Shown here one piece after another: positions 2,791 through 6,925 of a DNA stretch of 32,000 nucleotides. The first letter of the stretch is position 1. Every line of letters begins with the position of its first letter. This DNA comes from Gammaproteobacteria bacterium. Its GTDB lineage: Bacteria > Pseudomonadota > Gammaproteobacteria > JBIOEC01. The stretch lies in contig OZ257143.1 in the NCBI GenBank assembly GCA_965279305.1, positions 1,200,001 through 1,232,000 on the forward strand. Direction: 5' to 3'. The position numbers were made by a program, and so were the translations under genes. The notes beneath the pieces were generated by a model. The model was not told where the DNA came from. It saw only the letters and a program-made list of their open reading frames with translations, and did no database searches.

Positions 2791-2818
2791 AAATACTTCA
2801 TTTGTTAGTAATCAGACT

Positions 2819-2847
2819 ATTTTCCTTGTTTTGTGGGTTACTGTCAA
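2819..2847 (-). promoter_or_regulatory. Sigma70-type promoter of the protease-like gene (-35 TTGACA, 17-nt spacer, -10 GAAAAT)
   Basis: On the minus strand, TTGACA (2847-2842) is followed by 17 nt and then GAAAAT (2824-2819), 28 nt upstream of the ATG. It belongs to the module shared with both tandem kinase genes. Confidence 0.55.
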
Positions 2848-2929
2848 ATAAATGAGGTTTTAGGGTAGGGGAGAGTGACGAAAAGAAGGGGTTTTGTTAC
2901 CATGGGGGTCTGATGAAAGGGGTAAAGAT

Positions 2930-3532
2930 ATGATTGGAAGATTATCTGGGGTATTGGTGTCTAAGCAGCCACCATGGATAGTAGTGGATGTGCAAGGCGT
3001 AGGGTATGAGCTACAAGCTTCTATGAGCACCTGCTATCGTTTACCTGAGCCCGGTAATACGGTTGTGTTACATACGCATTTAGTAGTGCGTGAAGATGCC
3101 CACCTATTGTTTGGCTTTGCCGATCAAAAAGAACGAGAGCTATTTCGTGAGCTGATTAAAGTAAATGGTATTGGCCCTAAAGTGGCACTAGTTATTTTAT
3201 CAGGCATGGATGTGAATATGCTGCTTCAATGTGTGAGCGAGAATAATATCGCGGCTTTTGTGCGTTTGCCGGGTATTGGTAAAAAAACGGCAGAGCGTTT
3301 ATTAATTGAAATTCGCGATCGTTTACCTACTTTATTTCAAGGCATTCCATTACTTCCAGGTGCTACAGAATCTGCTGCTCAAAAAGAATCATCCGCCTAT
3401 CATGATGCTGTTAATGCACTGCAAGCCTTAGGTTATAAATTAGCTGAAGCTAAACAATTAGTGCAATCGGTGGTTCAACCAGAACTCGGATGTGAAGATT
3501 TAATTCGTTTAGCTTTACAATCAGCCAGATAA
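2930..3532 (+). CDS. ruvA: Holliday junction branch migration complex subunit RuvA
   Basis: MIGRLSGVLV...GIGPKVALVILSG...LPGIGKKTAERL is collinear with E. coli RuvA. The ATG at 2930 gives the canonical MIGRL N-terminus, so the 12 extra codons from the TTG at 2894 in the ORF track are probably not translated. Confidence 0.93.
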   Translation: MIGRLSGVLVSKQPPWIVVDVQGVGYELQASMSTCYRLPEPGNTVVLHTHLVVREDAHLLFGFADQKERELFRELIKVNGIGPKVALVILSGMDVNMLLQCVSENNIAAFVRLPGIGKKTAERLLIEIRDRLPTLFQGIPLLPGATESAAQKESSAYHDAVNALQALGYKLAEAKQLVQSVVQPELGCEDLIRLALQSAR

Positions 3533-3548
3533 ATAGTGATTAGATAAA

Positions 3549-5211: not shown

Positions 5212-5240
5212 TGAGAGATTATGCAGTAGTAAAAGCCAAA
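5212..5240 (+). repeat. 29-nt copy of an internal ruvB segment (28/29 identical to 7702-7730)
   Basis: tgagagattatgcagTagtaaaagccaaa (5212-5240) matches tgagagattatgcagAagtaaaagccaaa (7702-7730, ruvB codons [10 protein letters not shown]) in the same orientation. Confidence 0.85.
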
Positions 5241-5283
5241 TCGGTCAGATGAATATACCTCTAATAAGGGTATATCAGATAAA

Positions 5284-6864
5284 TTAGGGTTTAGGAGGTA
5301 CAGCGTGTGCTGAAGGAGTAGGTGCGGATGGTGTAGGATTAATAATGCTATTCATCACTTGATCAAACTGTAAAAGTAACCTTTTTGCATCTTCAGCTGT
5401 GTGGATAGTGGCTTTATTTGTTTTATAATCCATTAATTGATTAGCATAATCAAACAACGGTTTTAATTCTGGTAGTGGACCAAATAAGGTTTGTTCATTA
5501 GGATCCAGTGTTTCGCTAAAATCAGTAAAAAAATGGATGCGAGAGTATGCTTTTACAAAAGGGGTTGCAAATTGCTTAGTCCCATAAACTAATTTTCCAT
5601 CCACCATCTTGTTATCCGGGAATGTTATGCCAGCAGGAACAATGAAAGTTTTTTCATATAATCCTTTATTCCAATCCATCGTTATTTTTATTGCAGCGCC
5701 TAATGTATATAAATCAATACTGTAGTTGAGATATTCTCTTCCGTGATTTTCATAAACGTCATCCGGCAAGAACTCTGGAGCACTGTAAAAATCGTAACTT
5801 TTGCTAGCATCCTCTAATTTCCTTGAGGATCCAAAATCACACAAATGACCTTTAAAATTCAAATCGCACATAAAATTTTCATTTTTTATATCACCATGTA
5901 CGTAATCTTTTTTATGCGTGATGATAATTTGTTTAATAATATCTGAGTAAAATAATGAAAAATTATTAATGGTCAATCTAAAAGAATAATTAGCGCGATA
6001 ATCATAAAAATCCGTTCCATTGAGTAATGGAAAAACAATCCCTCTTTTAAAAGGTTCTTTACTGCTTTTTCGTTTTCTATAAAAAGCAAAAGCATCTTGA
6101 GTATGGGGAAGCGCTATATCTCTCATCGCTTTTGCTTCTCTTTCTATATCATCAAGAAGATCGTTGGTAATAACTTTACAAGCACCCCACCATATTTTTT
6201 TTACACCATTTATTTCTGATTCAACCAAAACAGGTCTTAAAGGAGACCGCCCAATAGCTAAAACACCTCCTTTCTTTTTTTTGCTTTTTGAAGAATATAG
6301 ATTGGAAGTCATCTTGAGACTTCTATAAAAAGTGAGTGTGTGAATATTTCCATCATCACCTTCTACTCGCATTACGCTATATTTAAAACCCTCTTTCCTG
6401 CTAATTTTTATGCCTATATTATCTTTATTTTTGTAAAAGGTATTGATTCTTTGGATATCATATCTATTAGATAATTCGCCTTCCATAGTGATATCATCGA
6501 GATTAATATTCGGGGAAAAGGGTTTGGTTTTTTCAACAAGTTCATCCCTTTTTTTAGCTAAAGCTTGGTAGGTAGAGTAAATTTCGTTAAATATTCTTTC
6601 AGTTGAACTAATTCCCCTATGCTTTTTATAAAATGCATTAGGACTATTGCTTGCGAGTTTACCAAGAGAATCAACTATAGTAGTAGTAGGTTTTTTAAGA
6701 AGTTCTTTAATTTTCTTAAGAAAATCTATTTTTGCTTGGTTGATTTCAGGGGATCCCTTCCAGTCTTCTGTATTAGAAAGAGAACGTATTTTTGCATCTA
6801 CTTTGCTGACAAGTTCCAGCCAATCAGGGAGAGGGGCTTGAGTTTGTGTTACAGGAGGTGGCAT
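5284..6864 (-). CDS. Eukaryotic-like (Hanks-type) Ser/Thr protein kinase, tandem copy 2
   Basis: The 526-aa protein is a paralogue of 3549-5138. Motifs are YVHGDIKNEN, LCDFGSS, SAPEFLPDD and WGACKV. The tail is PTPSAPTPSAHAVPPKP. Confidence 0.8.
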   Translation of the reverse strand: MPPPVTQTQAPLPDWLELVSKVDAKIRSLSNTEDWKGSPEINQAKIDFLKKIKELLKKPTTTIVDSLGKLASNSPNAFYKKHRGISSTERIFNEIYSTYQALAKKRDELVEKTKPFSPNINLDDITMEGELSNRYDIQRINTFYKNKDNIGIKISRKEGFKYSVMRVEGDDGNIHTLTFYRSLKMTSNLYSSKSKKKKGGVLAIGRSPLRPVLVESEINGVKKIWWGACKVITNDLLDDIEREAKAMRDIALPHTQDAFAFYRKRKSSKEPFKRGIVFPLLNGTDFYDYRANYSFRLTINNFSLFYSDIIKQIIITHKKDYVHGDIKNENFMCDLNFKGHLCDFGSSRKLEDASKSYDFYSAPEFLPDDVYENHGREYLNYSIDLYTLGAAIKITMDWNKGLYEKTFIVPAGITFPDNKMVDGKLVYGTKQFATPFVKAYSRIHFFTDFSETLDPNEQTLFGPLPELKPLFDYANQLMDYKTNKATIHTAEDAKRLLLQFDQVMNSIINPTPSAPTPSAHAVPPKP

Positions 6865-6896
6865 AAATCAATTTTAACGCTGTAAGTAATCTGACT

Positions 6897-6925
6897 ATTT
6901 TCTCAAATTAAGAAGAATTAGTCAA
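6897..6925 (-). promoter_or_regulatory. Sigma70-type promoter of kinase copy 2 (-35 TTGACT, 17-nt spacer, -10 GAAAAT)
   Basis: On the minus strand, TTGACT (6925-6920) is followed by 17 nt and then GAAAAT (6902-6897). The leader is identical to that of copy 1. Confidence 0.55.

Follow-up and report, generated by a model that had tools for sequence, protein, structure and literature searches.

The window analysed here, a 32,000-nt stretch of gammaproteobacterial DNA, carries an orphan gene and two genes for eukaryote-type protein kinases on its minus strand, each preceded by a copy of the same promoter-like module (Table 1). The two gene families flank ruvA on either side, with kinases 1 and 2 separating ruvA from ruvB, and these recently inserted genes run on the strand opposite to the conserved ruvAB operon. 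The more distant relatives L016 and L017 have an intact proA/ruvA-ruvB/proS arrangement without the orphan, the kinases or the motif; both gene families are thus lineage-specific insertions.

Table 1. Features of the ruvA-ruvB region, in window coordinates.
Feature	Position	Strand	Remarks
Orphan gene, 434 aa	1486..2790	-	N-terminus MGKSNSS; between proA and ruvA
Module copy 1, upstream of the orphan	2804..2847	-	ATG at 2790
Copy 1, predicted -35 TTGACA	2842-2847	-	17-nt spacer follows
Copy 1, predicted -10 GAAAAT	2819-2824	-	promoter scan
Copy 1, conserved start-site element AGTCTGATTACTAACA	2803-2818	-	
Block A facing ruvA, GTGACGA-N11-TTTGTTAC	2875..2900	+	shared second box; putative ruvA promoter
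Kinase 1, 529 aa	3549..5138	-	eukaryote-type protein kinase domain; GC 34%
Module copy 2, upstream of kinase 1	5156..5199	-	ATG at 5138
Copy 2, predicted -35 TTGACT	5194-5199	-	17-nt spacer follows
Copy 2, predicted TG-extended -10 GAAAAT	5171-5176	-	
Copy 2, start-site element AGTCAGATTACTTACA	5155-5170	-	
Relic of internal ruvB, 29 nt	5212..5240	+	28/29 identical to 7702-7730
Kinase 2, 526 aa	5284..6864	-	tandem paralog of kinase 1; 64% aa identity
Module copy 3, upstream of kinase 2	6882..6925	-	ATG at 6864
Copy 3, predicted -35 TTGACT	6920-6925	-	17-nt spacer follows
Copy 3, predicted TG-extended -10 GAAAAT	6897-6902	-	
Copy 3, start-site element	6881-6896	-	
Block A copy facing ruvB	6955..6980	+	reads GTGACG-N17-TACTAT; putative ruvB promoter
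21-mer GAAAATAGTCWGATTACTWAC, three copies	2804-2824, 5156-5176, 6882-6902	-	

Genes downstream of the module

The protein kinase family PF00069 is matched by kinases 1 and 2 with scores of 58.2 and 50.0 bits (curated cut-off 31.7), and the best PDB matches of the kinases are eukaryotic CAMK-type enzymes. Their GC content is around 34%, against 39-43% in housekeeping genes. The first-pass annotation had called the genes behind the module effector-like, and an acquired, host-directed look is supported by the eukaryotic type of the kinases, by their GC content and by the absence of both families from the syntenic locus of the relatives. Its Legionella and Coxiella framing is not supported; the nearest named relatives of RuvA are unclassified gammaproteobacterial MAGs.

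The orphan, previously described as protease-like, has no Pfam family match and no PDB match at E <= 10, and its AlphaFold model is unusable (pLDDT 31). Its one remote homolog, P0128 in L019, lacks the cysteine of the NCG motif and is preceded by a different promoter, with no copy of the motif in its upstream region. The protease label, in the sense of a CE-clan or Ulp1-like cysteine protease, is unsupported, with no similarity in these searches and no conserved catalytic cysteine. The three genes had also been called unrelated. This is true of the catalytic parts of the orphan and the kinases and not of the kinases themselves, whose paralogy leaves two independent gene families rather than three. 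In an hhalign comparison a helical region of around 80 residues aligned between orphan and kinases (probability 66%, E = 5e-5), and the two families may share this helical module.

Promoter geometry of the module

Three instances of the pattern TTGAC-N18-GAAAATAGTCWGATTACTWAC are present in the window, in each case about 25-30 nt upstream of a minus-strand gene, exactly at the coordinates and with the sequences first reported, and the spacing between the -35 and -10 hexamers is indeed equal in all three copies. The -35 hexamer matches the TTGACA consensus at 6/6 positions in the orphan copy and at 5/6 in the kinase copies. GAAAAT agrees with the -10 consensus at 4/6 positions and has the A at position 2 and the T at position 6 expected for sigma-70; in the kinase copies it is preceded by TG. 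All three modules were detected by a promoter scan, with hexamer matches of 10/12 for the orphan and 9/12 for each kinase. The geometry of the module fits a sigma-70 promoter, with both its activity and its start site as predictions from sequence. The module also contains the stretch AGTCNGATTACT, which is distinct from the -10, and TAAAAT-N6-ATG lies directly ahead of the kinase start codons.

Conservation of the start-site element

Comparison of the orphan and kinase copies gives insight into which part of the module is constrained. The 21-mers are identical at 19/21 positions, whereas the best of 1000 intergenic shuffles reached 17; the spacers between the -35 and -10 hexamers agree at only 4/17 positions, and the flanks outside the module are otherwise unalignable. 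The reported 19/21 identity from the -10 into the early leader is therefore confirmed, as is the extension of conservation well past the -10 hexamer and over the predicted start site. A recent copying event or gene conversion would have carried the spacer along with the 21-mer. The contrast suggests that selection has acted on the whole 21-22-mer, from the -10 as far as about +10, and not on the -10 alone.

The module is retained in two further strains, L002 and L014. Across the three strains, TTGAC, a spacer of 17 nt and G-A-N-A-A-T are common to all six promoters, whereas the bases within the spacer vary freely. Identity among the three kinase genes compared is only 76-79% at the DNA level and 64-67% at the protein level, with 94.5% for the housekeeping DNA next to them, and despite this divergence the 25-nt island TGAGAAAATAGTCAGATTACTTACA is invariant in 3/3 kinase promoters. 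Conservation of the element thus exceeds the neutral expectation both within the window (19/21 against 4/17) and in this island. Only three positions vary in the 21-mer: the third base of the -10 (A/C), the centre of the dyad described below (A, T or G) and position 19 (A/T). Changes at the first two of these would be tolerable for a -10 hexamer combined with a symmetric operator. The constraint is not absolute, since the orphan copy in L002 (-10 GACAAT) has two substitutions in its 21-mer, about the average divergence of that intergenic region. The module has only two independent instances, which lie at one locus, 2.3-4 kb apart.

Dyad and leader sequences

The imperfect dyad proposed over the predicted start is present as AATAGTC-N-GATTACT, with 5/7 complementary pairs, although it is not significant on its own: around 1.8% of random 15-mers from the window do as well, and several registers are possible within the 21-mer. 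Its two arms are invariant, with A, T or G at the centre. Conservation is asymmetric about the dyad and runs on to ACA on its 3' side.

The claim that the leaders have no obvious Shine-Dalgarno sequence also stands. Of the 29 genes in the window, these three pair most weakly with the anti-SD (+1.3, +0.6 and -0.5 kcal/mol); the pairing of several housekeeping genes in the window is weak too. In predicted structure the leaders do not exceed shuffled sequences (z = +0.3 to +1.2), a result that speaks against a structured RNA, and no match was found in an Rfam scan of the window and L002 or in a tRNA scan of the window.

Distribution of the motif

Within the window there are no further copies of GAAAATAGTCWGATTACTWAC at <=3 mismatches, where shuffles expect 0, and in around 41 kb of this lineage (the window and the 8.7 kb of L002 that extend beyond it) the motif was not found beyond the two families. 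It is absent upstream of a third eukaryote-like kinase gene (27473-28975) and of the orphan genes at 12234-12713 and 12863-14662. A scan of public genome contigs with the 21-mer gave one chance match, in a Chamaesiphon MAG. A metagenome scan with GANAATAGTCNGATTACTNAC gave 11 chance matches in four unrelated groups (6, 3, 1 and 1), with TTGAC-N18 in 0 of them. The window contains an XRE-family HTH gene at 21470-21763, which nothing ties to the motif.

In Legionella and Coxiella the PmrA consensus consists of two tandem copies, TTAATATT-N-TTAATATT, immediately ahead of the -10, and the CpxR consensus in Legionella is GTAAA-N6-GTAAA. Neither type of site is found in the three upstream regions, in agreement with the first-pass annotation: at <=3 mismatches the window has a single match to the PmrA-type repeat, within the coding sequence of kinase 2, and none of the seven window matches to GTAAA-N6-GTAAA falls between 2791 and 7019. 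Readings of the element as a site for IHF, RpoS, an ECF sigma factor, PmrA or CpxR were rejected, either on spacing or because bases that each supposedly requires are variable. The modules probably mark a small set of co-regulated genes, a local two-family case with no genome-wide regulon shown.

Insertions, duplication and a second box at the ruvAB locus

Both kinases carry the module because the gene was tandemly duplicated together with its promoter. The ruvB relic sits between the stop codon of kinase 2 and the promoter of kinase 1 and is a scar left by the tandem duplication from which the second promoter copy arose.

A second box, block A, is found on the opposite strand in both divergent intergenic regions, where it is collinear with the module and 27-29 nt from its -35. 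The best 26-mer window matches at 19/26 positions (p about 0.003 by shuffling). At ruvA the box reads GTGACG-N17-TACCAT, with TGT ahead of the -10, and is a putative promoter of that gene; the copy facing ruvB is a putative version of the promoter that ruvB needed once the operon was split. The presence of block A in both regions suggests duplication of a bidirectional promoter cassette, and ruvB appears to have been rescued by a ruvA-type box that came with the promoter of the inserted gene.

In L002 the stop codon of the orphan lies 32 nt from the ATG of proA, and co-transcription of proA from the module promoter was considered. This was dropped since proA has retained its own compact promoter, TAGAAA-N17-TAGCAT-N6-ATG, which is homologous to TTGTYT-N17-TAGCAT-N7-ATG in L016 and L017. 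The heptamer AATAGTC is found also upstream of proA and of kinase 3; at proA it is probably a chance occurrence, as it stands in a different promoter register.

A putative start-site operator and its alternatives

We propose that a sigma-70-type promoter is fused to a start-site operator through which both gene families are co-repressed, and that its copies derive from a cassette; we give this reading a probability of roughly 0.45. The promoter would consist of TTGAC, an 18-nt gap and GAAAAT, with the TG extension in the kinase copies. It would be joined to a 15-16-nt element, AGTC-N-GATTACT-W-ACA, covering about -6 to +10 of the predicted start. This element would be the operator, the centre of its dyad lying about 2 nt before the predicted start; when occupied by a dimeric DNA-binding protein it would bar RNA polymerase, leading to joint repression of the eukaryote-type kinases and the orphan. 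We infer both the existence of this regulator and the sign of its action. The kinase copies arose by tandem duplication of the whole gene with its promoter. The orphan and kinase copies, and with them the two intergenic regions, would probably descend from one bidirectional cassette, with the module on one strand and the ruvA/ruvB-type box on the other, that was duplicated as genes were inserted on either side of ruvA, only the functional boxes being kept.

The same duplication could explain the shared sequence with no regulator or regulon at all, if the 21-mer were simply a good core promoter whose -10, discriminator and favoured initial transcribed sequence could be conserved in their own right. 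Two collinear boxes in both divergent intergenic regions, the scars left by the tandem kinases and the relic at 5212-5240, the confinement of all copies to about 4 kb and the lack of others in 41 kb of the lineage are all consistent with common descent alone. We nevertheless think this unlikely, while giving it real weight: a need for 16 specific bases past the -10 is not normal for sigma-70 promoters, nothing similar is seen at other promoters in the window, and neutral decay randomised the spacer yet left the element almost intact, a difference that calls for a sequence-specific reader. The element might instead act at the level of RNA, with GAUUACUWACA at the 5' end of the mRNA serving SD-independent translation, stability, or pairing with a small RNA or an RNA-binding protein. 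The three weakest anti-SD pairings in the window, the AU-rich and unstructured leaders and the conservation past the dyad to ACA would suit this explanation, which we hold to be improbable, given that only around 10-11 of the conserved nucleotides would be transcribed, AGTCN lying upstream of the predicted start, that conserved structure and Rfam matches are lacking, and that the remaining leader differs in length and sequence between orphan and kinases.

Two further explanations have very little probability. The -10 recognised by sigma-E and other ECF factors contains GTC or TCTGA, and GTCTGA, GTCAGA and GTCGGA in the modules resemble it, with the variable base coming after GTC; the GTC of AGTCWGA could accordingly be the -10 of an alternative sigma promoter comparable to the hrp box for HrpL. 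Against this, no AAC-type -35 is conserved 16-17 nt upstream, the window's orphan copy has the sole AAC, which stands at a distance of 19 nt and is not kept in L002 and L014, and 6/6 promoters preserve TTGAC at the sigma-70 distance from GAAAAT. A non-regulatory scar of the gene insertions, for example an att core or the end of a cassette, is equally hard to credit. In favour of a scar, the insertions are lineage-specific, and the copies form three direct repeats, all on one strand, that flank inserted genes; every copy nonetheless stands in exact promoter geometry and orientation 25-30 nt ahead of a start codon, the segments between the repeats contain the core gene ruvA, there is neither an integrase nor a second boundary repeat at the 3' ends of the inserted genes, and a scan of viral contigs for the element gave 0 matches.

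Comparison with known systems

A precedent exists in Legionella, where small sets of effector genes are each governed by a local regulator via a conserved inverted repeat whose distance from the -10 is fixed (PMC13555631, PMC12239595). The LexR1, LelB and LelC regulons resemble the present case in that a short element, often an inverted repeat, at a fixed -10 distance is common to one to four unrelated, horizontally acquired and often clustered effector genes, and the LelB targets include the kinase gene legK2 (PMC13555631, PMC12239595). Those elements lie upstream of the -10, where they replace the -35 and bind LuxR- or LysR-type activators (PMC13555631, PMC12239595), whereas here a good -35 is present, the element overlaps the predicted start and no secretion system is in view. 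The combination of a good -35 with an element over the start site suggests repression. The PmrA and CpxR regulons of Legionella and Coxiella are alike in that a cis motif marks sets of effector genes.

The operators of LexA, TetR, Fur and Cro/CI provide a likeness in position, being imperfect dyads of about 15 bp over the -10 and start of a strong sigma-70 promoter, and the variable base seen here on the dyad axis is in keeping with such classical repressor operators. The present dyad is weak, with 5/7 pairs, and the sequence of the element is not known to match any operator consensus. The hrp, PIP and tts boxes upstream of type III effector genes are alternative-sigma or activator promoters present in tens of copies per genome. 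They too are promoter signatures common to unrelated effector genes and usable for finding them; in contrast, the module described here has two independent copies and sigma-70 geometry. It is a local two-family case of a familiar kind and introduces no new principle.

Should the element be an operator, it would provide a sequence handle on the co-ordination of newly acquired eukaryote-type kinases with an orphan in an uncultured gammaproteobacterium with a small genome, and a simple genome scan could find more members. A broader version, in which the operator belongs to a lineage-specific regulator and marks host-directed genes across the 1.87-Mb genome, is a long shot. Were it true, the motif could read out the effector set of an uncultured, probably host-associated gammaproteobacterium outside the Legionellales, and the bidirectional cassette would show how inserted genes and a displaced ruvB gained promoters together. 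The locus also informs operon evolution, since here a conserved operon, ruvAB, took in genes of the opposite orientation.

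Conservation of a putative promoter element at the ruvAB locus

The 44-bp module is real and under constraint. A search of the window found the 21-mer GAAAATAGTCWGATTACTWAC upstream of the orphan gene, kinase 1 and kinase 2, with no fourth site in the 32 kb at up to three mismatches, where shuffled sequences led us to expect none. Ahead of every copy comes TTGACA or TTGACT, then a 17-nt spacer, and all three were listed as sigma-70-like in a promoter consensus scan, with a TG extension in the kinase copies. The coordinates, sequences and 19/21 identity count of the first-pass annotation were re-derived from the window and are right; shuffled orphan and kinase intergenic regions gave best 21-mer matches of 17 or fewer.

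Features of the ruvAB locus and of other loci discussed in the text (window coordinates unless a relative is named)
Feature	Position	Strand	Remark
proA	41-1294	minus	
MITE-like element	1333-1447		3' end of orphan gene
Orphan, 434 aa	1486-2790	minus	divergent from ruvA
21-mer, orphan	2804-2824		
Second box	2875-2900	plus	towards ruvA
ruvA	2930-3532	plus	
Kinase 1	3549-5138	minus	
21-mer, kinase 1	5156-5176		
ruvB relic	5212-5240		
Kinase 2	5284-6864	minus	
21-mer, kinase 2	6882-6902		
Second box	6955-6980	plus	towards ruvB
ruvB	7020-8030	plus	
Orphan, 159 aa	12234-12713	minus	between radA and glyA; no family match
Orphan, 599 aa	12863-14662	plus	between radA and glyA; no family match; GC 34%
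XRE-family regulator	21470-21763	minus	
Third eukaryote-type kinase (Pkinase)	27473-28975	minus	22% identical to kinase 1; GC 34.5%; downstream of uvrA
Intact ruvAB, L016	5070-6748		
Intact ruvAB, L017	10001-11473		

The informative comparison is that of the orphan promoter with the kinase promoter. Kinase 1 and kinase 2 are paralogs (64% identical) whose homology takes in the 3' flank and reaches 2 nt past the -35. In the gap from the kinase 2 stop to the kinase 1 promoter there is a 29-nt piece of internal ruvB (28/29 identical to 7702-7730), a relic implying that the tandem kinase duplication once covered the 5' part of ruvB as well. Being identical by descent, the kinase promoters tell us no more together than either does alone. 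Between orphan and kinase promoters, the 21-mer matches at 19/21 positions and the adjoining spacer at 4/17, while the remaining leader and the upstream DNA are unalignable. So short a patch amid non-homologous flanks is unlike the product of gene conversion or a recent copy, and the simplest reading of this pattern is selection on the element from the -10 to about +10.

The locus also occurs in two further strains, one represented by L002 (Logan SRR28248352; housekeeping genes 94.5% identical to the window in DNA; ruvA and ruvB separated by one kinase gene) and the other by L014 and L015 (ERR3281022/3; RuvA 99% identical). All six promoters compared from the window and these strains agree in TTGAC, in spacer length, in GA-N-AAT and in AGTC-N-GATTACT-W-ACA; they vary only at -10 position 3 (A to C), at the central base (A/T/G) and at position 19 (A/T). 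The kinase genes evolve fast (76-79% nucleotide and 64-67% amino acid identity), yet a 25-nt island is unchanged in their three promoters. Constraint is less evident in the L002 orphan copy, where two changes in 21 nt are near the mean of that intergenic region.

Origin of the locus

The ruvA and ruvB genes normally form one operon, which in the window is split by the two opposite-strand kinase genes (3549-6864). L016 and L017, whose RuvA is 72-75% identical, are more distant relatives; their backbone is proA(-), ruvA-ruvB(+), proS(-), with 50-70 nt between ruvA and ruvB, and orphan, kinase and motif are all absent from the syntenic locus. The orphan and the kinases are therefore insertions on either side of ruvA that are specific to this lineage. 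Kinase GC content is 34%, against 39-43% in housekeeping genes. The MITE-like element, which has 32-nt terminal inverted repeats (97% complementary, arms 51 nt apart), is not present in L002 and alters the orphan C-terminus; a different long palindrome lies between proA and ruvA in L017.

A second box, GTGACGA-N11-TTTGTTAC, lies 27-29 nt from the module -35 in the orphan-ruvA and the kinase 2-ruvB intergenic regions, both of them divergent. Over the best 26-mer the two regions agree at 19/26 positions (p about 0.003 by shuffling); the box has no further match in the window, and it recurs upstream of ruvA in L002, L014 and L015. In the direction of ruvA and ruvB the box has the form GTGACG-N17-TACCAT or GTGACG-N17-TACTAT, TGT standing ahead of the -10, and the leaders that come after it are 20-30 nt long and have good Shine-Dalgarno sequences. 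These sequences lead us to infer a duplicated bidirectional promoter cassette at the locus. Its duplication would have supplied ruvB with a promoter upon the operon split and the inserted genes with the module; the DNA between the boxes would have decayed afterwards.

Mode of action

With GAAAAT as the -10, transcription is predicted to start at the G or A of GATTAC, giving leaders of 23-27 nt. The dyad AATAGTC-N-GATTACT would then cover about -9 to +6, where a bound protein dimer would keep RNA polymerase off; we therefore favor a putative repressor operator, acting on a promoter that is otherwise strong. As a dyad the sequence is weak (5/7 pairs, equaled by 1.8% of random 15-mers), its sole further support being that the variable base is the axis base. 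Action at the RNA level is a less likely alternative. In its favor, the lack of an obvious Shine-Dalgarno sequence noted in the first-pass annotation is borne out by the three genes having the weakest anti-SD pairing among 29 window genes, and their leaders show no structure (z = +0.3 to +1.2); but the transcript would include only some 11 of the conserved nucleotides, and neither a conserved fold nor an Rfam family was found for them. An ECF-type reading with GTC as the -10 was rejected, as no -35-like AAC is conserved at the proper distance, and so was an att or mobile-element reading, given the geometry and the enclosure of ruvA between the repeats.

TAAAAT-N6-ATG directly precedes the start codons of both kinases (TAAGAT-N6-ATG in L002) and could be a second, leaderless promoter, which would account for their missing Shine-Dalgarno sequences. 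An apparent leaderless-mRNA promoter also precedes proA, as TTGTYT-N17-TAGCAT-N7-ATG in the relatives (L016 4850-4890; L017 9746-9790) and TAGAAA-N17-TAGCAT-N6-ATG in the window (1295-1340) and L002.

Extent of the motif and known effector regulons

Scans of genome, metagenome and viral collections returned chance matches at most, and the motif is confined to the orphan and kinase families within the roughly 41 kb covered from this lineage. The module is absent upstream of the third kinase, and the motif from both radA-glyA orphans, so that it is no universal tag of effector-like genes. The upstream region of the third kinase contains AAAAATAGTCGAT (29089-29101), matching the first half of the motif; in L016 the radA-glyA gap is about 300 nt with no gene called. 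GATTAC-N12-AATAGT, the motif-arm 6-mers in swapped order, occurs on the plus strand between the small XRE-family HTH regulator gene and queF (21764-21925) and may well be chance.

Neither PmrA-like nor CpxR-like sites were found in the three upstream regions, in agreement with the first-pass annotation. The closest precedents are the small local effector regulons LexR1, LelB and LelC of Legionella, in which 1-4 effector genes have in common an inverted repeat whose distance from the -10 is fixed (PMC13555631, PMC12239595). However, those elements lie upstream and bind activators, whereas the element in the window overlaps the predicted start site behind a good -35.

The orphan protein and the effector assignment

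The description of the three genes as unrelated holds for the catalytic regions of orphan and kinases; it fails for the kinases themselves, and is slightly overstated for the orphan, residues 333-411 of which align weakly with kinase 1 residues 18-95 (BLASTP E = 0.007; hhalign probability 66%, E = 5e-5). The orphan C-terminus and kinase N-terminus may thus have a possible helical module of ~80 residues in common, a hint of domain shuffling. The label "protease-like" finds no support: searches of Pfam and PDB gave no match for the orphan, its AlphaFold model is unusable (pLDDT 31), and the candidate Cys is missing from its one remote homolog. No secretion system is found among the genes in view, and "effector" therefore stays a deduction from the kinases being of eukaryote type and from the pattern of insertion. 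The nearest named RuvA sequences come from gammaproteobacterial MAGs that are unclassified, and not from Legionella or Coxiella. The orphan begins MGKSNSS, which fits the eukaryotic N-myristoylation pattern MGxxxS, and proline-rich tails (APxPxP) end the orphan and both kinases.
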